Source: Phoronis australis
Lineage: Eukaryota; Animalia; Phoronida
Length of the DNA stretch: 39,293 bases
NCBI GenBank assembly: GCA_002633005.1
Contig: NMRA01000452.1
Location: 328,021-367,313 of the forward strand
Reading direction: 5' to 3'
Under the pieces are notes generated by a model. The model did not search any database. It was not told where the DNA came from and saw only the letters and a list, made by a program, of their open reading frames with translations. The number at the start of each line of letters is the position of its first letter. The first letter of the stretch is position 1. The position numbers were made by a program, and so were the translations under genes. Positions 1-39,293 of the stretch are shown piece by piece.

Positions 1-1112
1 TGTAGTGCCAAGACATGATCACTAGAATTGTTGTATGCACTGCCAATGTCACTTAAACAAGACGCAATGTCGGGATGGTCAACGTCACCATATATCCTCT
101 TTCTCATTTTCAGTGACTCTTGCAAATACTGTAGTGCCGAGACATAATCACTAGAATTGTTGTATGCACTGCCAATGTCACTTAAGCAAGACGCAATGTA
201 GGGATGGTCAACGTCGCCATATATCCTCTTCCTCATTTCCAGTGACTCTTGAAAATACTGTAGTGCCGAAGCAGGATCTTTTGAGTTGTTGTATGCAATC
301 CCAACGTCACTTAATCCTGACGCAATGCCGGGATGGTCAACGTCGCCATATATCCTCTTCCTCATTTCCAGTGACTCTTGATAATACTGTAGTCCCGAGA
401 CATAATCACATGATTTGTTGTATGCAGTGCCAACGTAACTTAAAGAAGACGCAATGTCGGCATGATCAACGTTACCATATATCCTCTTTTTCATTTTCAG
501 TGAGTCTTGCAAATATTGTAGTGCCAAGACATGATCACTAGAATTGTTGTATGCACTGCCAATGTCACTTAAACAAGACGCAATGTCGGGATGGTCAACA
601 TCACCATATATCCTCTTTCTCATTTTCAGTGACTCTTGCAAATACTGTAGTGCCGAGACATAATCACTAGAATTGTTGTATGCACTGCCAATGTCACTTA
701 AGCAAGACGCAATGTAGGGATGGTCAACGTCGCCATATATCCTCTTCCTCATTTCCAGTGACTCTTGAAAATACTGTAGTGCCGAAGCAGGATCTTTTGA
801 GTTGTTGTATGCAATCCCAACGTCACTTAATCCTGACGCAATGCCGGGATGGTCAACGTCGCCATATATCCTCTTTCTCATTTCCAGTGACTCTTGATAA
901 TACTGTAGTCCCGAGACATAATCACATGATTTGTTGTATGCAGTGCCAACGTAACTTAAAGAAGACGCAATGTCGGCATGATCAACGTTACCATATATCC
1001 TCTTTTTCATTTTCAGTGAGTCTTGCAAATATTGTAGTGCCGAGACATAATCACTTGAATTGTTGTATGCACCGCCAACGTTTCTTAAATAAGACGCAAT
1101 GTCGGGATGGTC
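1..1112 (-). repeat. Coding tandem array of ~8.6 x 129-bp (43-aa) TPR units with a 516-bp four-unit higher-order duplication
   Basis: Consensus DHPDIASSLSxVGxAYNNSSDYVSALQYxQESLxMRKRIYGDV. Units start at 1112, 983, 854, 725, 596, 467, 338, 209 and 80. Bases 1-516 nearly match 517-1032. Confidence 0.95.
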
Positions 1113-3403
1113 AACGTCGCCATACATCTTCCTTGTCATTCTCAATGACCTTTTATGGTATTCTAATTCTCTATCATGCTTACTCATTTTACCGTAGATT
1201 GTCCCTATCTGACCCAATGTCTTTGCAATACTCGGATGGTCATTGTTTGAATGGATTTTCCTACTTAACCTTTCTGAATCTTCGGCTGCATCTGTTGCTT
1301 TATCGTGTTCTCCCATCGCACAATGCACCGTAGCAAGGAGACATTTAACTGAAACGGTATCATCTTGTTCGCCTTCTTTCAAAAGTTTCAATGTTTTAAT
1401 CGATGATAAACACCATTTCAACGAGTGTTCGTAGTTCCCATGATTATAGTACGCCATGGCTATCAGCTGCTTCAGTGTGGCTAATGTTCGGAGATATAAG
1501 TCCTCGTTCATGTTCATTGATTCAATGGAAAACTCTTGAACAAATGGTTGTCTGCTTAACGCTTTCTTGAGATCTTCAAGTAACTGGTTTGATAGTCTCT
1601 TTCCAGCCTCTTCATGCTTCTTCGTAATTTTTAATGCATGTATGTAATAATTAATTGCAGTACCATTTTGTCCTTTAAGGAAATACGCTTGCCCTATTAA
1701 CTGAAGACAATGACATACAAATCTGTCTTCGTGGTCACAGAAAACATCCTGTCCCTTGTGGTGCACCACTATGTCTTCTGTCTGTCTGTGTGGCGATTTC
1801 TTCTCCCAAACATATTCAATGTGGGTGAAAAATGTATCTAACGCGTTGTCATAGCGAAAGCAGCAAAGCTCTATGCAACCCTCGTAAAAATAATTTTTCT
1901 CAAAAAATGGCGCCTCAATCATTTTAGTTATGGGTGCAAGAACGAAGGACACATCTGTAATATAGTTAACTAACGGGTAGATAGAATAATAGTATCGGAC
2001 TATCAAATGTTTGAAATCGTCATACGGCTTGCCTAGCAACACAACGTCTTCCATTTGTCTACGCTGACTGCAATACTGTACAAGTCTGAATATACTTACA
2101 AATGAGACTATAAAGAGTAAGTTGTGCCTGCCATCAGGTGACAAAATGGCAGTGGATTTCATTTCATCAATGAGATCCCAAGTGTTGTCCTTAGTCAAAT
2201 TGAAAATAGCTTTAAATAAGGTAAGGACCAAGGTGGGCAGTCTGTACATTTCCTTTTTTATGTCATGAACATTTCCTGGCTTGTTGTGGAAGCTAAGCTC
2301 ATACAAGAACTCGTCCACAACATTGCGTATGTCACTGAAATATTTCAACCGTGCTTCTTCCTCCTTCTGGTGACGCGCTCGCTCTTGCCTGAATTCCTTC
2401 AGCAAGGATTCGTCTCCGTCAAGTTGCACTGTTGACATAAGAACGCGATCGAAGTTATACCCCTCTTTAATTGCTTGCCTGACTTCACACATTTCAGCCA
2501 TGTGTTTTGGTGTCTTGATTAATTCTATTCCGGCTTTACCTGGTCTATCAGGTCGCCCAAGTGGTGTCTTGCATGCGAATGGTACTGCACTATCAAATTC
2601 AAACCCACGAGCTACCACGTCATCAACAAACCAATTTCTACCTGGCGTGTCGTAGTCATTAAGCGACTTGATATGCATACTCTTAAGGTTTGTTTCTCGA
2701 ATATTTAAGACAAACAAGTGCATAAGTCTAGTCATGTTCCTGAAGTACTCAAGATCTTGTGCGTCATCCTTTACCAAAATGGCCCATTCCAAGTCCGAAT
2801 AGGGTGTTACCTCTCCCCTTCCCAAAGAGCCCATGGCAAACGCTGCGTAGTCCTGTGGGGGTGGGCCTAAAATTTCTCTGCATTTTGAGAGAAGGTATTT
2901 GTTCAAACCTTGCATTTGTGAGCACAAGGTCCGAAATATCGTTCTAGTTTCATCAACGAATACATGTTCTAATTTCAATCGCTCACTATCGGATGCTTCT
3001 AAATTGAATTCAGTGGCAAAAGTGCTCAGTAGTTCACCGGCTCCTGGAGAGGTCTGGATTCTGACATTTCTCAATTTTTCTACCACTTCGGACCTAAAAT
3101 CCATTGGTATTTTGCTACCAGACAGACAAAGCGTGGTACAGAATGCCGTTTCGTTGTCTCTTATTAAGATCTCCAACTCCTCAGTCATTTCAGTTTCAAC
3201 TCTCAGTATAGCGGCGTTATATAAGGCTGAAGCAGTAACGAAGTGTTGAGTACATTTTTGTAATAGCCCTCGCTTTTTGTAAATATCACCCATCTTTTGA
3301 AGGATTTTTCCACCTGACTCTGATTTTCTGTCATCCTTGCTTAGTTTTTTAAGCTTGGATGCTAATGAGTCTTCATCCTTGACCAGCCGTGATGACACTT
3401 CAT
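1..3403 (-). CDS. Large exon (3'-partial) of a nucleotidyltransferase (GlnD/DUF294-like) + TPR-array protein
   Basis: Hand translation of the minus strand is open from the acceptor ttgcag|AT GAA GTG (3403, phase 1) to the window edge: DEVSSRLVKDEDSLASKLKK...ILQKMGDIYKKRG..HFVTASALYNAAI...LGPPPQDYAAFAMGSLGRGEVTPYSDLEWAILV...GFEFDSAVPFACKTPLG...HDIKKEMYRLP...NTWDLIDEM...FRLVQY, then TPRs. Absent from the ORF track because no stop lies inside the window. Confidence 0.92.
2040..2900 (-). other. Pol-beta superfamily nucleotidyltransferase domain (GlnD/GlnE/DUF294-like) followed by a DUF294_C-like helical domain
   Basis: hGS-x10-DLE signature at 2772-2867, preceded by GPPP..YA..AM. Candidate third acid in GFEFD (~2592-2606). 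DIKKE.YRLP (~2264) and NTW.LID....LS......L......FRL resemble the DUF294 C-terminal domain. Confidence 0.8.
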
Positions 3404-4445
3404 CTGCAAATATGTTGAACTGTTAATTGAAATAAGATTGTACAGGCATTTAATGTATCCCACTACCACTCTAATAGGTATGAGTTTTTAGTTTAGAGTG
3501 TTCTTAGCTAGGTCTTGTCGTCCAAGTACATGTATTTGACCTACAAGACACTGGACTAACAATGACAAAAGCAAAAATGTATCAAAATTTGGTAATGAAA
3601 TATTTTGAAAGAAATCAGCCCATCTCTTCAGTATTTTTACTTTTAAAGTGACTTTTTTTTCAGAGACAGCACACGTGTCAGAACATTGAAGTAATGAAAT
3701 GGACTGGCGGAGGAGGCGGGGTCTTGAATCTTTTCAGATTGGCAATTCTGCATTCTACAAAAATTGTGTGGTTAAACCACGTGCCTTATTTATTTTGTGT
3801 TGTCATGATTACACCTCACCAAGTCTTAAAGTCTAATATTAACGGAATGTTGCTATTTTAGGTGTATATGGCTAACCAGATAGTCCTACGCTCTTCAAAA
3901 TAATTGGTGAGGCTGCCTTTTCGTACCGTGTTGTATTTTCAGGTGTTACTGTTCAAGGTAGGCTTTAGGACTTAAATTTTCAGCACCCAATTCACAGAAG
4001 AAGGCATGAAATAACTTATGAACACACACGTGTCATCTATGATTTTGCACATTTTAAGATGTATACTTTACAGGATTGTATTATGCCATACGAACATGGC
4101 TTGAATTCAGACACATGTTTAATGATTTATTGACCAAAATAAAGCTCATCACCTCTATATAACCACTATAATTTCGATTGCATTCCACAAAGTTAGGGTA
4201 TTTTTGATAATGTTGATATGAATTGCGTATAGTTGTTTTTGGAAATAACCATACTAGAAATTGGAAGCGTGTTCTGAACAAGACAATCTTGTCTGATTTC
4301 ATGGCATTTTGTTTCCTCATTAGAACGAGAATAAATCTCATTGATCTATGGTCAAAATATACATGTAATTTTGCCACCTCTATAAAATCACCCCAAATTC
4401 GATTTTCCACAACATTACAACACGATTGCTTTCTTTTCGTTATAC

Positions 4446-4604
4446 CTGACACGTCTTTTGCTTCACCCTCGTCGGCCTGTTTATCGCTGTCTGATGAAGG
4501 ACAGACTGATGATGGTCCATCTGCCGGCTCCTGCGCTTCCTTTCCTGACGTAGTACAGACCTCATCTACAGACCTGTCTTCTGTGTTCTTGATGTCGTCA
4601 TATT
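4446..4604 (-). CDS. Internal 159-nt phase-1/1 exon, acidic low-complexity (copy 3)
   Basis: Acceptor atacag|AATATGAC, donor GTGTCAG|gtataa. Encodes EYDDIKNTEDRSVDEVCTTSGKEAQEPADGPSSVCPSSDSDKQADEGEAKDVS. Phase matches the 3403 acceptor. Confidence 0.82.
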
Positions 4605-5417
4605 CTGTATACACATTCAATGACTGCAGTTATGTTGAACTGTTATGTAAACAAGACTACAAAATTTAAATTATCATACACTGTATTTCTATCCACTTTA
4701 ATAAAGGTTTGAAATTTTAATAATTTTCTTATAGTCCCAGTGCTTGATCAGCTAGTCACTTGATTTATAATGACACAAGCAAAATGTATCAACATCAGGT
4801 ATTAAGATATCTTGTAGGAAACCAGTCGGTGTTTACAATAATTTTTAAACTCATTTTATGTTTGAAAATGTAGCCAGAAACAATAAATGTATCATAGCAG
4901 GAAGGAATTTTCTTCCGGTTTGAAGACTGAATGAAAAAATCATATTAGTAGATTACTTCATGGGGGTGCTTAAATGGGGGACTGGAATTTCATGTCTTGA
5001 TTAGATGTAGCGATAACAATCAAAACTAAAACAGGCATGTAGTCAACCCACACTATTTTTGTAGAACGCAGAGATGCCGAAAAAGGATCAAACTACCGCT
5101 TCCGCCGCCAGTGCTTCTCATAACTAAACACGAACGTGGCCTGAAATTAGACCCATGTTTAATGACGTATACATCAAAATAAAAGTATATCACCTCCAAT
5201 CAACCACGCCGAAACATTCGAAATTTGAATCATGTTTCGCTCAAAACAAGTTTCCTTTTACGACTAGAGTCAATTTCAATGAAGTGTTATAATACAACCA
5301 ACACGAGAAAAATCGTCCAAATGCATTGTGCAGGTACTACACGTGTTTTCAATCTGATATGATGTTTAGTTGATTAAATTGTTACCCTGCAACTTGATTG
5401 CTTTCCTATGGTTATAC

Positions 5418-5576
5418 CTGAGACGTCTGTTGCTTCACCCTCGTCGGCCTGTTTATCACTGTCTAATGAAAAAGAGCGTGATGATGGTCCATGTGCCAGC
5501 CGCTCCTCTTTCTTCCCAGATTTGGTGCAGACCTCATCTATACACCTGTCTTCGGGGTTCTTGCTGTCGTCACATT
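5418..5576 (-). CDS. Internal 159-nt phase-1/1 exon (copy 2)
   Basis: Acceptor catgcag|AATGTGAC, donor GTCTCAG|gtataa. Encodes ECDDSKNPEDRCIDEVCTKSGKKEERLAHGPSSRSFSLDSDKQADEGEATDVS. Confidence 0.82.
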
Positions 5577-6265
5577 CTGCATGCATATTGAACGACTGTC
5601 TTGGTTATGGAGAAATTGCTTTCAATTGCACAAAAACTGCTTGCATATTCCGCAAACCTAAAGTGTAGGGTGTTAAGGGTAAAATGACCAACTTGATCTA
5701 AATTTCCAACTTCAGAGACTGCTTATACCTTTTGCACAATAATTATAATTCCATTCAATGTGCAAGCAATCCTAATCCATTTGAAACAAGACTGTGTCAA
5801 AATTTAAAAATTCACTTTAATAAAGTAGTGAGTTTTCAATATTAAGCCTACACCGCCTCTCATCACAAAATATAAACGTGACTTGGACTTAGTTCTATTT
5901 TTCATGACCTATATTACAAAATGTAAATAATATCACCTCCACACAATCACCGTAAATTCGATTTTCTACAACGTTAGGGAGTTTTTGATAGTTTTGCGAT
6001 GAAAAGGCGTTTTTTTTTTCGTAAACAACTCCACTAAATTTGAAGCGTGTTTTGAACAAGACAATTTCGTCTCATTTACTGACATTTTGTCATCTCATTA
6101 GGACATGAGTGAATCTCATTGACATCAGGTGACACTATCGAAACAACAAAAACCGCTCAAATACTGTACATCTTTTGCAGGCACTATGATTACTGTTTTA
6201 TCTGATTATGAGTTTTGTTGATCAAATTGTTACATTATAAGCTGATTGCTTTCCTGACATCATAC

Positions 6266-6424
6266 CTGGCACATCTGTTGCTTCACCCTCGTCGACCTGT
6301 TTATCGCTGTCTGATAAAGGAGAGCGTGATGATGGTCCATGTGCCGGCCCTTGCGCTTCGTTTCCAGATTCGGTATGGACATCATCTATACACCTGTCTT
6401 CGGGGCTCTCGCTGTTGACAGATT
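6266..6424 (-). CDS. Internal 159-nt phase-1/1 exon (copy 1)
   Basis: Acceptor catgcag|AATCTGTC, donor GTGCCAG|gtatga. Encodes SVNSESPEDRCIDDVHTESGNEAQGPAHGPSSRSPLSDSDKQVDEGEATDVP. Confidence 0.82.
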
Positions 6425-7220
6425 CTGCATGCATATTGAATAACTCTCCTGTTATGAAGGAACTGTTTTGAATTGTGCACAAAAAGCGCACATGTTTTAA
6501 ACCTACAGTGCCCGTGTGCGTTTGTTACGGGTAAAATGGCCAATTTAATGCAAATTCCAATTTCATTCTGCTTGTTACGCCCACTTCATCGTTAATTTTT
6601 CTAAATACACATTTATTGGCAGCCATTTTGTATGACGTGAGATTTTTGTGGCTTTGGCGTCATTTTGTATGATGGCTATGCAGGAAGGACATTTTACGAT
6701 TATTATTTCAGAAACTAATCTACGTGGTGGCTCCTTGACCATACTCAGATAGAGTCCAGTAGCGGTATGACCTCGCTAAAAAAAGCAAAACTTCGCGAGA
6801 TAACGTGAGATATTGCCGTGTATTTCAAATGAGGACACGTGATTTAAGTTAGATTTGAGCGAGGTCCTAGAAAAGGTCCAAGAGTTACTGAGCTAGTGTT
6901 TTGTTGCAAGTCCTAACATTTGCTAAAGCCTTGGGCACACTAGCCTAGCCAGAGGTATTCAGTAAGTAGAGCCAAATTTGGGAGCCGATTAATCGACCGT
7001 ATGGGCGTTTTGGAGAATATTTAAGTGACCGTGCTACACACTCTCGCTGAAGAGCTCCTGTGGCACTGAGTAGGAGGACCATGATCCCCTTATGCACCGC
7101 CGTAAAGTACATCTGTGCAAGAAACTCTAGTCTGTTTGCCACAATTAGCACTAACTCTGACCGAATAACAGTGCACAAACTATCTTCATTAGTCAGTGAC
7201 ATCGTATGAAACAGCATCCC

Positions 7221-7501
7221 CAGTGGCGGATTTAGGGGGTGGCCAAGGGAGCCATGGCCCCCCTAAAATTTTACAAGATACCATTTGGCAGTTCGGGTGC
7301 GAATTGCTTACTAGCACATAAGCCCAACCAGGGGAGAGGGGGCTCTTGGGGGGGGGGTGTTTTTTAAGTCAAAAGGTCCGCAAACCCAAAAATTCGAAAC
7401 CGCTACATCCCTACATTTTAGACTGGGCGCGCGCAACTGACAAAACTGTGGTTATTCCTCTGCCCCGGCCCCCCTAAGTCAAAATCCTGGATTCGACCCT
7501 G
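7221..7501. mobile_element. Non-autonomous hAT-like MITE
   Basis: Degenerate terminal inverted repeats CAGTGGCGGATTTAGG / CCTGGATTCGACCCTG. Flanking 8-mers AGCATCCC / ATCACCCC (6/8) fit a decayed target-site duplication. Confidence 0.55.
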
Positions 7502-8157
7502 ATCACCCCTACTTGTTATGCTATCTTTGGTAGAAGAACCAGTGATGGCTACAGGACGTTTAAAATCTTTGAAATTTCGTTTTGATGTGATGTGTGCAGG
7601 TTTCTAAACTTTTGTAATTCAAACATATCTGATTTACATAGGAAAGGTGTTAGTTCAAGTGTGATAACCACACTTAGTTTTTAGCGATTGTCTCTAAAAT
7701 GATTTGAGCAAAACTTCTACTGGTATACAGCCACCAAGCCTAAAATTGGTGATTGTGATCGTAGAAATACCTGATTACCATGGTAGCGATACCCAATTCA
7801 GCACAGCAAAAGATCTAATTTTTAAAAATAATACCCCCGCCCAAATCCTTTTGTCAATGTTTCTCTCTTATAAAATGAATTTGACCCCAAAACCTAAAAC
7901 AGCTGAATTATTTTCGCAGACAAGCTACTTCTTGGTAACCGTAACAACGGCACATACTCAAGCTAGTCAACCCCCTAGGTTTCCTTGAAGGAAGATTCAC
8001 CATAAATACTTAAGAATGACTTTGTTATCACACTTAAATTTGCTGATGTTAACCAATTGACCGCTATTAACTATCAAAATTAACTGCACATAGAATATAT
8101 AACCCTATTTTCACAACCAACCCATTTATCTAAGCATTAAGAACAACGTACCTAAAC

Positions 8158-8387
8158 TACACGGTTAACGGAGTCATGAACACGGTAACGTACTCATGAA
8201 CACGACTCACGTACCTTCAAACACCGTTCACTGACTCACAAACACGGGAACGGACTCACAAAACACGATCCATTCACCGAAAGACACGGCACACGGACTC
8301 AAATTCACGAAGAAACACGGTTAACGGACCGCCAAGCACTGTTCACTGCGATAAAGCATGTCATAAAAACACGGGTCACGGACTCAT
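8158..8387. repeat. Degenerate ~21-bp minisatellite (AACACGGTtAACGGACTCA-like)
   Basis: ACACGG...GACTCA motifs recur at roughly 20-22 bp spacing. Confidence 0.65.
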
Positions 8388-8749
8388 CGGCTTCCTGGGT
8401 CAGCTGACACCGACATTTTGTCCGTAAACTGAAAAAGGATTGAACTACCGCTTCCGCCGCCAATGCTTCTCATCACTAAATACGAACATGGCCTGAACTT
8501 AGACCCATGTATAATGACTCATAGATCAAAATAAAAGTACATCACCTCTATGCAAGCACGTCAAATTTGACAACCGATTAATCGACCGTCTGGGTTTGTT
8601 GAAGAGTAGTCAAGTTACCCATTATCTACGCGCGCATAGACCGGGATCCCAGAGCTTTTTTGGGCATGAAAAGGCAACCAATTTTCTTTGGTGCCAAAGT
8701 GTTCTATGTGTATCCTCATGATTGGAAATGGCCGTCTGGCAGGTTCGCT

Positions 8750-9560
8750 CTGGTGGGTGTGGTGAGGGGAGCCAAGAGAATGACACTCAAAAATTGAGCT
8801 AGATCAACTTTTCTGGTAACCACATAATCTGCCGTCGATACCTGCTACGTCATCCATTGTATCAAAATTGGTCACTGCGAGACAATTTCTGTGGTGGGAA
8901 GTACCCGCCAGACAAACATATACAGGGTACAAAAATTGAGCTAGATCAATCCAAGAGGTAACCGCTTGAAACCAGTCGCAAAATTTATTATTCATCGTAA
9001 GCACAGGTACCACGAATGAGCACTGCCAGAAAAATCTAGTGGTGGGTTACCCTCGCCAGACACGCCTAAATACCAGAATTGAGCTAGATCAATCCATCAG
9101 GTAACCGTTTGAAACCAATTGCACTACGTTCAGCATCACTGAACAGTTTGATGCCAGACAATTTCAATGGTGGGGTGCCCCTGCCAGACGATTATCAAAA
9201 AGGGTTAAAAATTGAGCTAGATCAACCCAAGAGGTAACCGCCTAAAACCAGTTCCAAAATATTCACCGTAAGCCCAGGTATCACGAATTAACACTGCCAG
9301 ACAAATCTAGTGTTGGGTTAGCCACGCCAGACACGTCCAAATACATGAATTGAGCTAGATCAACCCAAGAGGTAACTGCATGAAACAAGTAGCAAAATAT
9401 TTGCCGTAAGCCCTGGTATCAAGAATGAATACTGCCAGACAAATCTAGTGGTGGGTTATCCCCGCCAGGCACGCCCAAGTACCTGAGTTTAGCTAGGTCA
9501 ACCCACAAGGAAACCGCTTGAAACCAATCGCCCGATGCTCAGCATCATTGCACGTGGCAA
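8750..9560 (+). repeat. Tandem repeat of about six ~140-bp units
   Basis: Core AATTGAGCTAGATCAA (last copy degenerate) at about 8792, 8934, 9077, 9210, 9348 and 9487. Each unit also carries GCCAGACA..GTGGTGGG..GCCAGAC. Confidence 0.85.
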
Positions 9561-10029
9561 AACAGTAAGATGCCTCCATCAAACAAATAGGGAGTCGAAA
9601 CAACATTGATTATAAGCCCATTCACGCTGAATAAGCATCACAATCAGGAACCAGGCACTTCGATTTTCAATAAAGCCACTAAGTCTGTACGACATAGGTC
9701 ACCGCACAAGGTGAGAGATTTTTGTCCGCAAGTTTATGTCTGGGCATGAACAATAGAAAAACCGCGCCTGAGGTTGGAGCGATCTCACAAGTCCATGCGA
9801 AAACAGCAGAATACTCCACATAATTCACTATTAAAACGAAACCTAAAAACTCGTCCAAGACGGATACCACATTTTTTCGTTATCCTATTTTACCAGTCTA
9901 AACTGCCTCCCTTTGTTTTCGGACGAGTCATTTGATGCAACTGCTAAAAGGAATAATAATCAAAATGCCGTCTTTTGCTGTCCCCTGCGTCATCTACCTT
10001 CATTTCACACGGTGATGAATTGCAAATTT

Positions 10030-10335
10030 GGCAAAACTGATCAGTTTTGGGCAGTCTTCGTCTTTCTCGGCATAAACCGAGCCCACAGACATCTCCGGAG
10101 ATCCGTCAAGAACAATGACTTCAGTGGCTATATCAACATTTTCCCGACTACGCTAGAAGTATTCTTTGCCCTGAACCGCCCAAACTACGCCGGATGGGGA
10201 ACATTGTTTTACCAAAAGTTGAAATTGGCAAACCCAATATTACATGAAGTGCTGGAAAACGGTGCGTTATCAGTGCTAGGTACGAGGAAAAACTTTAATA
10301 GATCGGCTGCTGACCTCTCTTTGAAACAGTCCGTA
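10030..10335 (+). pseudogene. Degraded transposase core fragment, Academ-like
   Basis: GKTDQFW...LRRSVKNNDF.GY....LEVFFALNRPNYAGW...GALSV..T.KNF.RSAADLSLKQ resembles the R.gDw.lh...FFa.dh.NYARW...G.F.v..t...fs....D...EQ block of invertebrate Academ-type transposases. Confidence 0.6.
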
Positions 10336-10816
10336 TTTTTATGTTTGATATGGTGTTCTCCAAAAAGGCTGAAAACACCTCTGCGGCACCTGATATTGGG
10401 TACGTATGGTCGTGTTAGATTTCATGGAAAAAAACCATCAAAGCTGTAACGTAGATAAAAAATTCTGTTCATGCTGCGAACATGTTATTCACAACTGATT
10501 CATGGATATAACGAGTTCTGATAGTTTTCAGTTTAGTTAGATTGACAATCATTTCACTTGCACGACACAGATAAGCGGGCAATGGAACTGTTCGCTTTTT
10601 GTCTTCATAGTGAATATAAAACACGTTCGAATTAATTATCCATAGATGTTGTATGTGATGCTCAGCCACCGTGGCGACAGCCTCGGCATCCACATTGAGG
10701 AAGGGGGTATCCAACCACTATGTATACTATTTTTGGAAATAGTGACTGAATTGCAGTTGAATTAAATAAAGATTCGAGTTTATGCTTCACCTTTTTACTG
10801 TTATTATTTCATAGTA

Positions 10817-10890
10817 CAGGCCCGTAGCCGGGGGGGAGGGTTCGGAGGTTCGATCGAACTCCTACCCCGCTGAAAAGGTCCACCCCCCAG
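10817..10890 (+). mobile_element. Isolated terminus of a hAT-like MITE
   Basis: CAGGCCCGTAGCC-G-run-GGTTCG..CGAAC..CCCC...AAAAGGTCC, similar in style to the 7221 element. No matching opposite end found. Confidence 0.35.
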
Positions 10891-11745
10891 CATATTCGTT
10901 AAAGATAGGGTTTAATTGGACAATAACAACAAAATTGTTGCAGCTACTGGTGCTAACTACAATGATAACTAAGTTAGCAATAATTTTGAATTCGCTTCTG
11001 ATTCAAACCGCGTCACGTGGCGTTGGGCCGAACTCGGCAAACTTCGCCCGAATGCCGCTGTTAGTGTAGATGACAGGATTGTGCATACGATAAGAGAAGC
11101 ATTTATGTTATTCATAACCCACGCGAGTGGTGGCTACAACAAAGGCTAACAAGTGAGTCCAGAAGTGAATGTCTATACCTAAGCATAAAAGTCTAGCCCT
11201 AAAACCTAAGTAAACTTCATGCTAATGTAAATAGCAACGAGAGAGCTCCCAAAAAGTAGTGCGGTGTGAATGCCTTAAACTCGGCCAATGAAGAAACAAA
11301 ACAGCAGAAAAATTGAAATTTGTTATTCTGCTATTTTTGGTTTAATTGCAACCATAGCACGGTGGAGGTGTAGGCATTTTCAAATTTTGAATTGAAAGTG
11401 ATCGTCAAATATGCAAATATGTTGTTCAACCAGTGTCCACTTTGATTGTGGATTGATGGATCATGCATGCGTGTACACGTTTGAACGTTTCTGTTCTTTT
11501 AAATTCAGTACATGTTGACAGAATGTTCATTATAGTCAGTCCTCCGTCGTGCTAAAAGCCATACATTCAACTGCTGTGTTTTCTTGCACTGAGAATACAC
11601 CGTTGATCATTTTCACGTTATGATGGAAAGGTAGGCATAAACCTCAACTTTGGTCAATGAAAATCTTCTCTAGTCAATCAATGTCAATGGTGCCCAACCC
11701 TGCAGATTTCATACGAGCCAAGAACTAGATGGAAAAGATTTCCAG

Positions 11746-12502
11746 GGTTCCATGTCACTATGACGAAGGTTCAATACTCCGAAGGTCCAGTGCTCAGAAT
11801 GCCCTTTTCTCCGAAGGTTCGTTATCTTCTAAAGATCACTACTTTGAATTTCTACTATTCCAAAACCATCAGAACTCAGACAGTTCACTACTTTGCTATT
11901 GTGATCAAGACTCATTCTCAAGCAGAGACAATTACATCTGGGGCACGGCTGCGGCGACCAACGGCGGTTTCAAATTTAAGAAGACTAAATGGGACTCCCT
12001 GACTTCGTAAGGACTGGCAGGGACAGGGTGGCCTAGTAACTTCATTTAGTTTCGACCCGGCCGTGCGCGTCGCACTGCGATTCGATCTTGACATGGATTT
12101 GATGAATTGTGTCATGGCTGATAATTCATCAGTATTCCTACTTCATATCATTTTGAAATGCAAGTGCGTACTCATTTTTGACATGCGGGCAATTTCGCAT
12201 GCGCATGAAATCTGACTACCGTTTCTAGTTGTGCTGGCCAGCTGGAGACGCTGGTCACTGTCTACATCAAACCCAAACAAAGTGTTTTAGTGCCAGGGCG
12301 TTGTTTTCGGTATAGGTGCATCTAATAGACGAAATGTGGTTTATTTTAGCATGTAAACGTTTAAAAATCACATCTGAGTTTGAAAGTTTAGATATTTTTG
12401 AAGCGGTGAATCTTCGGAATGGTGAATCGTTGAAGTAGTTAACCTTCGGAATAGTCAGTGAACCTTCCGAGTAGTAAACTTTCGAAATAGTGGGATGTCC
12501 CC
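11746..12502. mobile_element. Non-autonomous DNA transposon (Mutator/foldback-like) with exact 8-bp target-site duplication
   Basis: ATTTCCAG at 11738-11745 and 12503-12510. GG...CC termini. Inverted subterminal ~17-bp repeats (TCCGAAGGTT left, AACCTTCGGAATAG right). Confidence 0.7.
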
Positions 12503-13030
12503 ATTTCCAGCGATGTAAGCAACTTAAGTAACACGCTAAAATACAACCAGATATACAATTTTGTTAAGTCATTCGCCAACTAGACTTCATATTTCCGTCT
12601 GAGTATGCAATGAGATGTAATCACTCATTTAAGCATGGCTGATTTGAAACTTCGGCAGGAAATAATACGACAATGTTCTCTTTTTGGACCACATTACATC
12701 CTAATTTATGTCCCGTCACAGCATCCTCATATCTGGTATTACAAATTCCGTCTCATCTCATGAAAATGAGTCGTCGTCATTTATACAGATTTCCCTTCCC
12801 CCTAATTAAGGTGCGTCAAAGGCATCACCGAAAACTCTACAGTGGCGACGTTTGCAAAATACGAAGATCCACCGTTCTTGAAATTCGAACCACCCCCGGG
12901 GCCTGAATAGCATACATGCATTTGAGTTGAGAGATAGGGGCGTCAAAAAAGTCGCCCTTGCATCGACCAAACCTCTGCACGCTACTGCCCCACCGCTAAA
13001 AATGTCTGTAAAGTACCTTTTGTTGCATGN

Positions 13031-13330
13031 TGTCTGGCGGGGCTAACCCACCACTAGATTTGTCTGGCAGTGTTTATTCGTGATACCTGGGCTTACTGTG
13101 AATATTTTGGAACTGGATTTAGGCGGTTACCTCTTGGGTTGATCTAGCTCAATTTTTAACCCTTTTTGATAATCGTCTGGCAGGGGCGCCCCACCATTGA
13201 AATTGTTTGGCATCTAGCTGTTGTGCCATGTTCAGTGATGCTGAACATCGTGCAATTGGTTTCAAACGGTTACCTCATGGGTTGATCTAGCTCAATTCTG
13301 CTATTTGGGCGTGTCTGGCGGGGTAACCCA
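13031..13330 (-). repeat. Inverted copy of ~9040-9335 (140-bp repeat family), next to the N at 13030
   Basis: Reverse-complement match over ~300 bp, e.g. GGTTACCTCTTGGGTTGATCTAGCTCAATTTTTAACCCTTTTTGATAATCGTCTGGCAGGGG. Confidence 0.85.
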
Positions 13331-13422
13331 ATTGGCAACCAAGTTCAAAACAGGAAATGTGTTTAAATTAAAAGTATTTTGATGGCCACAGGTTTAATGA
13401 CTACGTACTTAGAGGAAAGGTA

Positions 13423-13890
13423 GGGTGGACGAAAGATGAGATGCATTTTTCTGATATTTAAAAAATATTATAATTTTTATTTTAAAACCTTATTCTATTT
13501 ATCACCTGGGAGGAAAATATTACCAAACAGGTGGAGAGCATTTACACCTAGGTGAAAAACATTAGCAATCGGTGGAAATCATTTCCATCCGATGGAAAGG
13601 GTTTCAAATGTATGGCAGTGTCCTAATAACGGGAGAGGTTCGAGAAACGTGGAAATTAATTCCAAGTCTAACAGCGAGGTTGAAACATCTTTAGCAAAGT
13701 GTTAAAGGATCAGATCACGTGACTAAGATTATTAACGTTCGAGTAAAATCTTTCCACCCAGGTGGAATTGTTTCACGCCTGGAAAGTATTGTTTTCTACC
13801 TGGGTGCTAAAGAGAAAAAAAGTTTCAAAACAAGATGAACATTTGCATTATACAGTATGTCTAAAAATGCCAATCATCTTTTGGCCACAG
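13423..13890. mobile_element. MITE with ~28-bp degenerate TIRs, flanked by TA
   Basis: TA-GGGTGGACGAAAGATGAGATGCATTTTT ... AAAAATGCCAATCATCTTTTGGCCACAG-TA, with internal GGTGGAAA/TTTCCA repeats. Confidence 0.5.
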
Positions 13891-14119
13891 TAGAAAGGTG
13901 ATAATAATCTTCTTTGTTCTCTTTTTCACGTACATGTTGTCAGCAAGATATAAGGTGGTAATCTAGTAGCTGGTATTTTGAAATTTTGTGGAATGACTTT
14001 CTTTCGTAAACAAATTTAACATTTATCCAAGAAAATTCCACAATAGGGGGTACATCTTCTATACAGTTAACCCCGAAGTTGCGCTGTGCCATATTTTAAT
14101 GATAAATCTTTTTACTTAC

Positions 14120-14165
14120 TCGATAAGTCATTACCATCCTCAGCCGCGTCTTCTTGGTCGGCCAT
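14120..14165 (-). CDS. Probable first coding exon of the NTase-TPR gene (MADQEDAAEDGNDLS)
   Basis: ttttatttgtag|ATTTCGAAAATGGCCGAC...TTATCGA|gtaagt: good acceptor (exon starts 14174), AAAATGG start context, consensus donor. The 46 coding nt give phase 1, matching the downstream exons, and the peptide is acidic like them. Confidence 0.7.
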
Positions 14166-25882: not shown

Positions 25883-26854
25883 CTACAAACTTACATCTAC
25901 ATTAGCTTCCGTCGTCATCTGTTTTGCTTCACCGTATTTGCTGGCTTGTGCTAGGATTTCTCCCACATCTGTCTTAAAGGCAAGAAGAACATCTCGCCCT
26001 TGGTGATGATCTTCTAATTCTGGAATGTGGAAGAGCAACCGTTCTTTCAGTAGGGTAGCATGTGTGTCGGGTGATTCGATTCCTAGCTGCTCCAGCCTCT
26101 TCCTGTACAGACAAAACAAGTCTACAAGTCGGAAAACCGGTGGATCTGAACCATCACTTGCAGTTTTCACCTCAGTAATGTATGTCACGAGTTCCGAAAA
26201 AGTCATCGGATAAGCATTCTTTGTTTGGAGAGTCCCTTCTTCTTTCTTATGCTTTTGAGCATTCAGAAATGCCCTTTCTCTGTTGTACAGAGCTAACAAG
26301 CATGCTGGATGATATTTTACTTCCTGTGCGATGACATCTCCGGCACTAAGTTTTGCTAGGAGCTTACCATCATTGAGAGTCTTGGCACATTCATTGATAG
26401 TGTGGTTCAATGTCAAGGTCATAGCTTGTCTCAGGGTTTCCCCTTCCTCCTCAAACAAGAAGCATTCGGTAGTCTTGGGGTCTATGATTCTCCTTGGTAC
26501 TTTGCTGTAGTTGCTACTGTCACTAATGTATGATACAAGGGCTGATGATCTTTTTTCAGCTCGCTGCAGGTTCGTATTGCAGAAGAGCCACCTGCAGCTG
26601 GAATGGTACTGGGCATTGTTCTTTCTCAAAGTGTTCTCTATCCCGCTGCCATCGTCAAGTCTTGCGGGATCCAGATGTATTGGCAATTCATTGAGAGAAT
26701 GAAATTGAGGGTTATTCGCCCCTAACTGGCTGTATCCGCAATCTTGCCGTTTCGAAGGATTTGAAAGTGGAGACGTGAGATATTCCTTCATGTCCGTTTG
26801 ACAAAGACAACATTTGTCCAAGTTGGTGCGCCAAAGTGTTTTACTGGAAGCCAT
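25883..26854 (-). pseudogene. N-terminal part of an Academ-like transposase, truncated
   Basis: 323-aa ORF with CCLCQ, RLDDGSGIENTL..NNAQYHSSCR, LLAKLSAGDVIAQEVKYHPACLLALYNR and VFRL.DL..LY..RLEQLG....HAT.LKERLL. No catalytic core follows. Confidence 0.65.
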
Positions 26855-27929
26855 TGTTATTTTTACGATACGCAGGGTCGAGGATTTATCCTTTTACCAC
26901 CCTGTGTCCCGGGCACTTTACTGTATGGGATACGACTAGGTTCATGCATTTTGCCCTACTCCTAGCCCGACCGTTCATCCAACGCCATTTAAGTCCCTAC
27001 CGATCTGTACACCATCCGGATAACTATGAACCCCATTGTCTTTGGCTCAGCTTTCCCGCACTGCCACATCCTGTCAATTCAAGTGCGACTGCTTAACTGA
27101 TGGGGTAGATTAAGCAGCATTTGGGACACTAAACAGGTATATCTAATAAAAATTCCTCTTCAGTTGACATTGAGCCCCATGCTGAGTTTCACAGCAGTAA
27201 TTGTCACCAGTGTGCCCTGGCAGTGCCAGACAATTACTCACCAGACATTGTCTTCAAGTCATGGCCCGTCATCTTCATGTTCAGTATTTTTAGAGGTAGA
27301 CATACTTTAATTCACACACACACGGAGCTTTTGTGTGTTACTCTCACTTACGTTTTGCCCGCGAGCCAACGCGGTGTCCCGGGGTGTGGCCGTTGCTGCA
27401 CACCAGCAACTCCTTGGAGCCATAAGTGAGAGTTGGCAATAGAGGTGAGGACCAGTGTCAGAAGTCCATCCTGCTTAAACAAAGGTACTACCTCTACCAC
27501 TGCACCCGTACACACTATGCATAATTTATGTTCAGCTATTGATAAAAGACAAATGGATCATGACCAAAGCATTCGACCAGACAAAAATCATATAAACTGA
27601 CCGAATTAAAGTGTATAAGTGCCTATGTCCTGACAATATATACAATTGAGAGTGTTCACAATATCCAAAATGATTTAAGCATACCCAAAACTATAATATT
27701 TGATACCAAGATCGCTAAAATCGGTTTGGTAGATACTGATTTACAAGGAAAATCATTATCGCGAACACTGGATGGCGGCCATCTTGAAAAATGGCTGCCA
27801 TCTTGGATTTTCAGATGGTTAGTCGGACAGATCTCTTATGTATGCTATTATGCGTCATCATGGAAAATTTGGTGCTTGTATCATCATTTGCGTGATTCTG
27901 GTGCATATTTGCACTTATCTGCCCAGCTA
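25925..27929 (-). mobile_element. 5' part of a truncated Academ-like DNA transposon
   Basis: Minus-strand terminus TAGCTGGGCAGATAAGTGC at 27929 with GGCGGCCATCTTG-type subterminal motifs, followed by the transposase N-terminal ORF, which appears to break off near 25925. Confidence 0.6.
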
Positions 27930-32709: not shown

Positions 32710-34700
32710 AGTAATGAAGTAAAGTAAGTAATTTTTATCATAGTGACGTGTTCAAATGAATTTAAACAATTAATACGTTACAAAACAGGATCACCCAGCC
32801 CTCCACTGGGCTTATAAGTCACTTAAGACACATGATAAAAAAAGAAAAAAGTGTACACTCATTGCAAGCGGACCAAAGAGAGAACACGGAGATAACAGTG
32901 ATCATGTATAAATATAATTTTTCCTTACTTCAAAAATATTTTTGATGAAAACTGAAGTTTTTCTGTTAACATCTTTTTGCATAATTGTACGAAATCATGT
33001 ATATTTAATCTCAACTTGACAATAAAAAGTGTTTCTGGCATCTAAGAAAAACGGACACTCAAACAGAAAATGTAGTTCAGTTTCGACCTGACCAGTGTGA
33101 CAAAGACAGCAAATTCTATCATCAAATTCTAGCGAACAAAAACGCCCAACCTCAAGCAATAGCTGTAGGGTTCCGCTTCTAATTTGAGCAAGAATTGACC
33201 TACTAGGCAGAGTTAAGTCTAAATGCACTTAAGGCTCAACTTCAAAAACATGCTTCATCAAAACATAGGTACTTAACTTTCCTTTCGAACGGCATCCAAA
33301 AAACAACCCATTACAAGCCAAATCATGCAAAATATTCTTACAGTGAGAGATAAAATGAACATAAGTCATGAACAAAACTTCAGAAGATCAATTATTAGTA
33401 CAGGTAGTGTAAATGCACAAAAGTCTATCTTCTTCGAATTTTAAAACACGATTCCACATTCTCAAAGGCTCAATTTTCCGGAGAATTCCCACCCCATGTC
33501 ACCCATAACAGCATGATTAGGATCGAGTTCGTGAACGCCCAAAAAATCGCACGGCTCTATTCTGAATGACATCATAGTCCTGTAAACTAGAATCCCCAAA
33601 GACACCAACACAATAATCTTTAACAGGTACAACGCATGCATTGGATAATGTAGTGAATGTTCTGTACCTCAAATATTTATTCTTTTTAAATTTATTAATT
33701 AAAGCGCCCAAAGTTCTTCCGGCGGATTCGGACAGAGTTTTAGCAGTTTTCAGAAAACTTTAAAAAGTTCATTTAAAATCATTCCTAAATATTTATAATT
33801 AGGTACATACTTTAGGTCCAGTCGACCCAACCGAAATGGATATAGACTAGGAGAGACATGCTTGGATCTGAAGTAAATAATATTAGTTTTTTCCTGATTG
33901 ACAATTAGCCTCCATTTAGAGCACCATTTGTCAACTATATTCAATAAACCCTGTAAATTTTCTTCGCTCTCGGCAAGTACAACTATATCATCCACATAAA
34001 ACAAAGATTAAACATTATCAACACCCATAAGAATTCCTAAATTTAACTGTTTTAATTCCGTTGCCAAATCATTTATAAATAGTGCAAAAAGAGTGGGTGA
34101 TGAAACATCTCTTGTTTGACCCCATAAGTTGTATCAAATAAGTCTGTAATGGTATTAATTTTGAACACAGGATTGACTTTCGGCATAGATATTTTTAACC
34201 GATTCATGAAGCTTTCTAACTATCTAGCATTTGAAAAAAGTAAACTATTTCTATCTACCCAGTCAAAAGCTTTTTGCATATCAATAAAACTCGCAAATAT
34301 TGATTTTTTTGGTATTCAATCGGTTACGTATAACCGAGGTCAAAACAAAGACGTGATCAACACATGCTCTGTCACGACGAAAGCCATTTTGCTCTTCAAC
34401 AAGGAGCCCGATTTCCTCCGCGTACTCAACCAGTCTATTTTGTTCAATGCACTACTATACAACTTGTATATGTTGGACAGCAAGCTAATTCCCCTATAAC
34501 TCAACGGGACGTGCGGGTCCTTCTCTGACCCCTTTGGAATTGGCATAATAAGGGATTTATCCCATAAACTAGGAACCATGCCGTAACGAAAACCATTTGG
34601 AACAAATAAGTCAAAAGGTCAATAGCGGTATCATTTTTACATACTTGGTTAATTCCTACTTCTTTATAATAATTAGATTTCATCACTGCCCGCGTTACTT
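32710..34700 (-). mobile_element. Degraded 5'-truncated non-LTR retrotransposon (reverse transcriptase, RTE-X-like)
   Basis: Frameshifted RT motifs PIPKG..DP.VPLSYRGISLLS, FIDMQKAFDWVDR, SPTLFALFINDL, YVDDIVVLAESEENLQ, YKYLG, and C-terminal LEVGRF..RICCLC..VETELHFLFECP. (TTAC)-like tail near 32710-32740. Confidence 0.88.
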
Positions 34701-38268: not shown

Positions 38269-39293
38269 TTACATAATTAAAGTCTCTCCTTGTGTTTCTG
38301 CAATGTTAACGTGGTCTTCTTCACCAAATAATCTTTTGGTGATGCCCAGTGATTGAGTGCAGTAGTCCACAGCTTCATTCAGTTCATCCATTTTTAGATA
38401 AACCTCACTGTTGATAATACTGTAGTGCCGAGACATAATCACTTGAGTTGTTGTATGCACCGCCAACGTAACTTAAAGAAGACGCAATGTCGGGATGGTC
38501 AACGTCGCCATATATCCTCTTCCACATTTCCAGTGACTCATGATAATACTGTAGTGCCGAGACATAATCACTTGAGTTGTTGTATGCACCGCCAACGTAA
38601 CTTAAAGAAGACGCAATGTCGGGATGGTCAACGTCGCCATATATCCTCTTCCTCATTTCCAATGACTCTTGATAGTACTGTAGGGCCGAAGCATGATCTT
38701 TTGAGTTGTTGTATGCACCGCCAACGTTACTTCAAGAAGACGCAATGTCGGGATGGCCAACGTTACCATATATCCTCTTTCTCATATTCAGTGAGTCTTG
38801 CAAATACTGTTTTGCCAAGACATGATCACTTGATTGGTTGTATGAATCGCCAACGTTACTTAAAGAAGACGCAATGTCGGGATGGTCAACGTCGCCATAT
38901 ATCCTCTTTCTCATTTTCAGTGACTCTTGCGAATACTGTAGTGCCGAAGCATGATCTTTTGAGTTGTTGTATGCATCGCCAACGTTACTTAAAGAAGACG
39001 CAATGTCGGCATGATCAACGTTACCATATATCCTCTTCCTCATTTTCAGTGACTCTTGATAATACTGTAGTGCCAAGACAGCATCACTAGAATTGTTGTA
39101 TGCACTGCCAATGTCACTTAAACAAGACCCAATGTCGGGATGGTCAACGTCGCCATATATCCTCTATCTTATTTTCAGAGGCTCTTGCAAATACTGTATT
39201 GCCAAGACATGGGCGCTAGAATTGTTGTATGCACCACCAACGTTACATAAAGAAGACGCAATGTCGGGATGGTCAACGTCGCCATATATCCTC
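38269..39293 (-). pseudogene. Disrupted 3' end of a paralogous 43-aa TPR-array gene (5'-partial)
   Basis: Seven units (starts 39274 to 38500, 129-bp period). In-frame TAG at 39164-39166 (Lys position) and TGA at 38732-38734 (Leu position). A frameshift near 38410 puts the cap SEVYLKMDELNEAVDYCTQSLGITKRLFGEEDHVNIAETQ out of frame. Confidence 0.82.

Follow-up and report, generated by a model that had tools for sequence, protein, structure and literature searches.

Gene organization

We examined a 39,293-nucleotide (nt) stretch of the phoronid Phoronis australis genome (GenBank assembly GCA_002633005.1, contig NMRA01000452.1, positions 328,021 to 367,313 of the forward strand), referred to below as the window. 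Its first 14,165 nt hold a predicted minus-strand gene whose product joins a nucleotidyltransferase module to a long array of tetratricopeptide repeats (TPRs). The gene runs off the window edge, and its 3' end and the C-terminus of its product lie beyond position 1.

Six-frame translation yielded one long stop-free frame (3422-3, minus strand, 1140 codons, open at the edge), which underlies a large exon 5 (3403-1, minus strand; acceptor at 3403) whose 1133 codons reach the window edge without a stop. Four further exons were predicted upstream on the same strand: a 46-nt exon 1 (14165-14120; 15 codons plus 1 nt) with an ATG at 14165 and a strong GTAAGT donor, and three 159-nt mini-exons that are copies 1 to 3 of one unit, each with AG/GT ends and phase 1-1, namely exon 2 (6424-6266; acidic, serine-rich and stop-free), exon 3 (5576-5418) and exon 4 (4604-4446). 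Joined at their predicted AG/GT junctions, the five exons give 3926 nt, or 1308 codons with no stop, in line with the open spliced frame of more than 1300 residues claimed by a first-pass annotation of this DNA. The open frame is an observation and the splicing a prediction. The N-terminus specified by the 5' exons would be acidic and of low complexity.

The mini-exons are 81-83% identical to one another in DNA, with no internal indel; their reading frame contains no stop in any copy, versus 1-2 and 3-5 stops in the other two frames, and the ratio of nonsynonymous to synonymous differences (pN/pS) among the three copies is 0.70-1.16. Their acceptors are weak. They are also dispensable for the frame, because exon 1 ends in a phase (1) that allows it to join exon 5 directly as well as through exons 2-4. 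An exon-like pattern of this kind occurs seven times in the 10.7 kb of upstream intron, three of the seven being the mini-exons themselves, so such patterns arise by chance. Since the mini-exons can be skipped and the pattern recurs, the five-exon model is plausible but unproven. Exon 1, too short for homology, is the least certain of all exons. Alternative acceptors lying 19 nt upstream of all three mini-exons were rejected, as five stops result if all are used. Shortly before the predicted acceptors of exons 2 and 3 there is an ATG in frame, and judging from the sequence these two could serve as alternative first exons. The intron pieces around the mini-exons (4088-8619) are likewise duplicated, at 70-88% identity.

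Bacterial contamination was rejected as unlikely: besides reverse-transcriptase fragments and microsatellites, the window has long stretches without coding sequence and copies that look like exons.

A conserved nucleotidyltransferase core

Residues are numbered here from nucleotide 3401 in exon 5; adding 175 gives the number in the spliced product. The enzyme module (residues 39-492; 1926-3287, minus strand) comprises a helical lead-in, a Pol-beta core and a helical partner domain (residues 346-490; 1932-2366, minus strand). Pol-beta nucleotidyltransferases share the signature hG[GS]-x9-13-D-x-[DE] on a small beta-sheet. Exon 5 encodes G191-S192-x10-D203-L-E205 (2831-2787, minus strand), with modelled strands at residues 185-189 and 206-210 on either side.

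Conservation was scored across a set of 158 homologues, made up of 17 of the first 100 matches, 136 of 137 new representatives from a later profile search, and 5 bacterial open reading frames (ORFs); two rows were dropped for short coverage. G191 is kept in all 158, and both acidic sites are D or E throughout (157 D and 1 E at D203; 156 E and 2 D at E205). In the window protein the GS-x10-DLE motif is intact, as the first-pass annotation had stated. D270 (2592-2594, minus strand), likely the third metal ligand by comparison, is present in 158/158; the alternative, D260, is present in 155/158. Three basic residues of the helical domain are nearly as constant (K382 in 157, R387 in 156 and R439 in 155). 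The motif and its conservation were observed directly. Departures at sites otherwise conserved in the family were also found: G235R, P240K, P264A and G271S.

Pfam placed the core above the cut-off of DUF294 (PF03445; E 1.2e-8, 35.3 bits versus 21; E 4.4e-8 in another scan), with SidM_N below its own (E 0.003, 17.2 bits versus 27) and NTP_transf_2 at E 0.012. TPR_10 and TPR_12 also matched the protein. PF10335 (DUF294_C) gave no match at E≤0.1 in the window protein and matched the homologue P0107 at E 1.3e-7; of the Pfam models that the first-pass annotation had singled out, PF03445 and the TPR models thus match and PF10335 does not. That annotation had called the enzyme GlnD/DUF294-like. The DUF294 part stands, whereas a GlnD identity was rejected, the GlnD models scoring 11-18 bits against cut-offs of 519-1299. 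No HD or ACT domain matched in Pfam. Nor did a motif search and Pfam find a Walker A motif (P-loop), NACHT or NB-ARC domain in the 1308 residues within the window, which agrees with the earlier failure to see a P-loop. An active HEPN RNase was rejected, as residues 346-490 contain no Rx4-6H motif, which according to a published listing is also missing from GlnD/GlnE/DrrA-type domains (PMC3710099, in the part available).

Predicted structure places the enzyme with DrrA and GlnE

An AlphaFold2 model of residues 1-560 was built from 73 sequences (mean predicted local distance difference test score (pLDDT) 84.7; predicted template modelling score 0.87). Foldseek returned only four matches with E≤0.001 for this model, led by DrrA (E 7.4e-8) and followed by GlnE domains (about 2-4e-6). 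VIA-align against 48,161 chains likewise ranked DrrA first (6yx5_B; Z 22.3, root-mean-square deviation 3.7, 324 residues aligned, model 39-492 on chain 14-348), with two GlnE domains next (Z 17.6 and 17.3). A profile of five family members searched against solved structures also had DrrA 6yx5_B at the top (E 1.1e-5), one aligned stretch covering the core and one the helical domain. A single-sequence search of PDB gave only TPR matches below E 0.001, and a fold search with the full-length model had only TPR proteins among the matches listed. Together, the model comparisons predict that the Pol-beta core and its helical partner domain are arranged as in DrrA and GlnE. The Pol-beta nucleotidyltransferase fold proposed in the first-pass annotation is therefore upheld, with DrrA/SidM and then GlnE, rather than GlnD, as the closest solved enzymes. 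The helical partner domain is likewise present by structure (DrrA 209-344, 3l0i, Z 10.8), though PF10335 is unmatched.

The likeness to Legionella pneumophila DrrA/SidM (6yx5, 3nku, 3l0i) extends over the whole-module fold, the motif and the aligned basic residues of the helical domain. The G-x11-D-x-D motif of DrrA (PMC8097203, in part) is paralleled by G191-x11-D203-x-E205, with E in place of the second D; DrrA catalysis uses D110, D112 and D150, and Rab binding opposite the active site activates the enzyme allosterically (PMC7815794, in part). The two proteins differ in that identity is only 13-14%, SidM_N stays below cut-off, and the window protein, from an animal gene with predicted introns, has a TPR array where DrrA has guanine nucleotide exchange factor and phosphatidylinositol 4-phosphate-binding domains, neither of which was seen in the part of it that lies within the window. 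GlnE (1v4a, 3k7d) and GlnD share the Pol-beta core, the helical domain and the DUF294 match; unlike them, the window protein has a single enzyme module and no HD or ACT match, and GlnD models fall far below cut-off. By fold and motif the protein thus resembles DrrA and GlnE, and by the features tested it is not DrrA, GlnD or a NOD-like receptor (NLR; NOD, nucleotide-binding oligomerization domain).

These matches bear on two other enzymatic readings. A Pol-beta core with D-x-E, together with oyster proteins in which TPRs accompany a Mab-21/cGAS domain (PMC8195603, in part), might suggest a second-messenger synthase akin to cGAS or OAS that makes a cyclic or oligo-nucleotide when its TPRs are engaged. 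We consider this improbable: the match to the DrrA/GlnE clade spans about 320 residues including the helical partner domain and lies far above the other matches listed. No cGAS, OAS or Mab-21 chain, the group with the two-lobe Mab-21/OAS fold, was among the matches listed by Foldseek or VIA-align, though such a chain could stand lower down. Aminoglycoside nucleotidyltransferases do appear lower down (Foldseek probability 0.75-0.93), and kanamycin nucleotidyltransferase (Z 8.0) is the next nucleotidyltransferase after DrrA and GlnE among the VIA-align matches listed. A small-molecule or RNA nucleotidyltransferase, perhaps detoxifying like the kanamycin enzyme and using its TPRs for localisation only, nevertheless seems very improbable, since these matches are much weaker than those to DrrA and GlnE, and a long TPR array that varies suggests that the partners are proteins.

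The TPR array and its broken neighbour

TPR-like helices flank the enzyme on both sides. At the start of exon 5 (residues 1-91; 3129-3401, minus strand) they appear as model helices conserved in homologues, whose similarity to TPR proteins (Z about 8-10) is not above the helical-repeat background. Downstream, a diverged TPR-like helical linker (residues about 500-763; 1113-1904, minus strand; Pfam TPR_2/TPR_8 at residues 573-603; pLDDT partly below 50) leads through one diverged unit to an array of 8.6 units of 43 residues (1-1112, minus strand; pLDDT about 90-97), which the full-length model renders as regular helix pairs.

Between distinct units, protein identity is 62-88% and DNA identity 81-95%. 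Units four apart have identical protein, with two mismatches in the first 520 nt; this identity points to a recent four-unit (516 nt) duplication, and may alternatively be an assembly effect. The first-pass annotation had described an array of almost identical TPRs: the array is there, and near identity holds only at the four-unit period. Through the identical four-unit block, the array reaches the threshold for high internal conservation (HiC) used for fungal repeats (at least 85% over 100 residues), a class reported as rare in metazoans (0.8%; PMC4986451, in part). Fungal HiC-TPR NLRs from the same source resemble the window protein in their kinesin light chain-type long TPR units with near-identical copies; they differ in that the window protein has no NACHT or NB-ARC in the part seen, carries its enzyme N-terminally and directly linked, and gave no detectable positive selection.

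Selection on the repeats was examined in 11 distinct units (five from this gene, six from the neighbouring array described below), with six groove codons named beforehand. Overall pN (0.13) was below pS (0.17). The excess of change at the groove codons was not significant in these 11 units (pN 0.18 versus 0.12 elsewhere, pS 0.17, permutation p 0.17), and groove positions 2 and 12 were invariant. In 51 homologue arrays of at least five units (427 units of 44 residues, positions numbered from the consensus), median internal identity was 67% and identical repeats occurred in only 3 of the 51. The most variable positions there were 2, 9, 12, 31 and 13; published variable groove sites of TPRs generally are 2, 5, 9, 12 and 13 (PMC1261162, in part).

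At the opposite end of the window lies what is likely the 3' end of a tandem paralogue, now broken (38269-39293, minus strand), with 6.9 TPR units 85-87% identical to those of the main array. Two stops interrupt its frame, at about 39166 and about 38734, and the frame shifts near 38407, ahead of a capping repeat. Both window ends thus fall inside TPR arrays, and because they have no exact overlap (best 90%), the two arrays are different copies. Searches with tblastn found no second enzyme domain in the window; the enzyme part of the neighbour would fall outside it. Repeat turnover was observed directly.

A large family shared by animals and intracellular bacteria

The 100 matches listed by a first search had 27-37% identity to the window protein and comprised 92 from Branchiostoma, one each from Ptychodera and Dendronephthya, and six without an organism. 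Searching 1.84 billion representatives with a profile then gave 2794 clusters at E 1e-3, 2088 at 1e-10 and 1167 at 1e-30; the 30 proteins looked up included seven from Branchiostoma, two from Ciona, one from Owenia, two from Candidatus Jidaibacter and 18 without an organism. The family is thus expanded in lancelets and also occurs in sea squirts, an acorn worm, an annelid, a soft coral and intracellular bacteria, a size and spread that we observed directly. Rather than the conserved single-copy orthologue that the first-pass annotation had named as a refuting case, the family is multi-copy and variable (1167 clusters at E≤1e-30). At least two family-type repeats follow the enzyme in 75 of the 137 new representatives, and repeat counts range from 0 to 33. 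Lancelet members are annotated in databases as uncharacterised PII-uridylyltransferase-domain proteins, and atlas neighbours of the window protein are mostly eukaryotic DUF294 clusters (0.92-0.96), with one Chlamydiota cluster (0.85).

When 185,579 prokaryote genomes were scanned with one strict pattern, four loci were found, two of them in one Parachlamydiaceae genome, where two tandem members (L001, 1811-9678) lie just downstream of the TPR tail of another gene. The window protein is 27-32% identical to its bacterial relatives, which come from intracellular bacteria and carry F-box or OTU domains. In Neochlamydia, the 50 NEX2 proteins combine DUF294 and multiple C-terminal TPRs with an N-terminal F-box in most members and OTU in some, and have been put forward as a putative host-directed effector family (PMC4209131, in part). 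NEX2 and the Parachlamydiaceae and Jidaibacter relatives share with the window protein a DUF294-type enzyme followed by a variable-length TPR array, as well as lineage expansion, a likeness that for NEX2 rests on published domain layout and not on alignment. The window protein differs in being host-encoded and in having no F-box or OTU match in exon 5, with acidic N-terminal repeats (from predicted 5' exons) instead. The DUF294-plus-TPR layout is therefore not peculiar to this gene, being published in Neochlamydia and present in bacterial genomes. One Owenia fusiformis gene model (P0121) encodes an OTU protease, two DUF294 enzyme modules and TPRs, in the order seen in ten Neochlamydia NEX2 members, and two of 18 proteins scanned, both Branchiostoma models, fuse the enzyme-TPR unit to Roc-COR-Death (P0110) and Roc-COR-GT4-conflict (P0116).

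In a 42-row tree the window protein forms a long branch, with 35% as its best identity; the fork from which it arises is open and also leads to groups from lancelets, sea squirts, an annelid, an acorn worm and Jidaibacter. Animal monophyly was not rejected (approximately unbiased test, p 0.217, LG+G4, 22 rows). With deep nodes open and animal monophyly not rejected, the trees would fit more than one donor, direction and number of transfers between bacteria and animals.

The isolation of this branch, with its 35% best identity, could also mark a decaying or selfish copy: a young pseudogene, or a gene without an immune role in a family that spreads by duplication. The two stops and frame change in the neighbouring array, the four departures at conserved sites and the evolution of the mini-exons near pN/pS 1 are consistent with decay. 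We regard it as unlikely nonetheless, given 1140 stop-free codons, the retention of every core catalytic residue, and a pN (0.13) in the repeats that remains below pS (0.17).

Proposed function

The best structural matches, DrrA and then two GlnE domains, are all enzymes that transfer adenosine monophosphate (AMP) to proteins, the reaction of this class being transfer from ATP onto a protein tyrosine. We therefore read the product as a protein-directed nucleoside monophosphate (NMP) transferase, most likely of AMP, whose TPR array likely chooses its partner in host-microbe conflict, and give this reading a probability of about 0.5. It is also favoured by the sequence profile, which puts DrrA first, by the DrrA-like motif, by acidic residues kept in 158/158 homologues, by the effector role proposed for the bacterial relatives, by the lancelet Roc-COR fusions, by the variability of published groove positions 2, 9, 12 and 13 in homologue arrays, and by repeat counts of 0 to 33. 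By analogy with DrrA and GlnE, D203, E205 and D270 would hold metal, the helical domain would close the nucleotide site through K382, R387 and R439, and a hydroxyl of the target would attack the alpha-phosphate. TPR biology suggests that the concave groove may bind a peptide or protein that is either substrate or activator, much as Rab switches on DrrA. From the family pattern, unequal crossing-over could alter repeat number and order, while gene birth and death would renew specificities.

Several points weigh against this proposal. Activity, substrate and transcription of the gene are predicted. The protein is 13-14% identical to DrrA; enzymes of one fold may differ in acceptor, and aminoglycoside enzymes belong to the same clan. 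The fourth acidic residue that one review names in DrrA, D249 (PMC8097203, in part), aligns with T390 by a hand count on the profile alignment, and D occupies this site in only 5/158 homologues. Conservation is inflated, since the profile used to pick the homologues gives weight to the motif. No family-type repeat follows the enzyme in 57 of 243 proteins, a count that includes diverged repeats and partial models that were missed. Groove variability is general to TPRs and so indicates a binding face and not immunity; an immune role is not shown by it. The lancelet Roc-COR fusions may be merged gene models. Finally, this copy could itself be broken beyond the window edge, as its 3' end lies outside and the neighbouring array is broken.

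Most of the evidence for a protein-AMP enzyme is shared by a receptor that works without a NOD module, in which the TPR array restrains the enzyme, releases it on binding non-self, and NMP is then placed on a fixed host target. This is the reading offered by the first-pass annotation; sensing of non-self and control of the enzyme by the array are hypothetical here. Such a receptor would fit an array that reaches the fungal HiC rule through its four-unit duplication, a tandem broken neighbour, large lineage expansions, an invariant enzyme core beside variable repeats, the allosteric activation of DrrA (PMC7815794) and the lack of a P-loop in the part seen. It sits less well with the non-significant groove excess (p 0.17) and the invariance of positions 2 and 12, with homologue arrays of 67% median internal identity and identical repeats in only 3 of 51, and with bacterial relatives of the same layout that have been proposed as effectors, not receptors (PMC4209131); further domains could also be carried by the C-terminus beyond the window. 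On balance this is a possible but doubtful alternative. A bolder form is similarly tentative: a third animal class of AMP-transferring enzymes (AMPylases) acting as one-piece immune receptors, in which microbial or modified-self proteins are bound and recognised by a recombining TPR array that directly turns on a DrrA-type enzyme derived from, or shared with, intracellular-bacterial effectors, with hundreds of such NOD-less sensor-enzymes in invertebrates.

For animal AMPylases, the available text of a 2021 review names just two classes, Fic and SelO (PMC8097203), and that of a 2025 review names the GS-ATase/SidM fold for bacterial enzymes only (PMC12409994). Metazoan FICD also combines TPRs with a protein-AMP enzyme in an animal (PMC8097203), but its catalytic fold is unrelated, and it is single-copy with one or two TPRs. 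We found no study of the animal family in the literature searched, including the terms in the available parts of PMC3482391 and PMC2794190, whose supplements may list such layouts. If the family is active, invertebrates would have a third, very large AMPylase class, akin to proteins that intracellular bacteria direct at their hosts, and with it a natural test of a repeat array gating an enzyme without a NOD switch.

Other features of the window

The first intron contains, at 8848-9574 and 13031-13330, members of a repeat family of about 138 nt in both orientations, likely a small mobile element. Microsatellites are present in the window. A 336-codon ORF (25886-26893, minus strand) has no Pfam or NCBIfam match; its language-model neighbours are unnamed mollusc, cnidarian and arthropod clusters (0.95-0.96, low recognition), and it is possibly, at a guess, transposon-derived. 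Broken reverse-transcriptase fragments occupy 33520-34618 (minus strand), with an RVT_1 match (E 4e-12) at 33753-34007.

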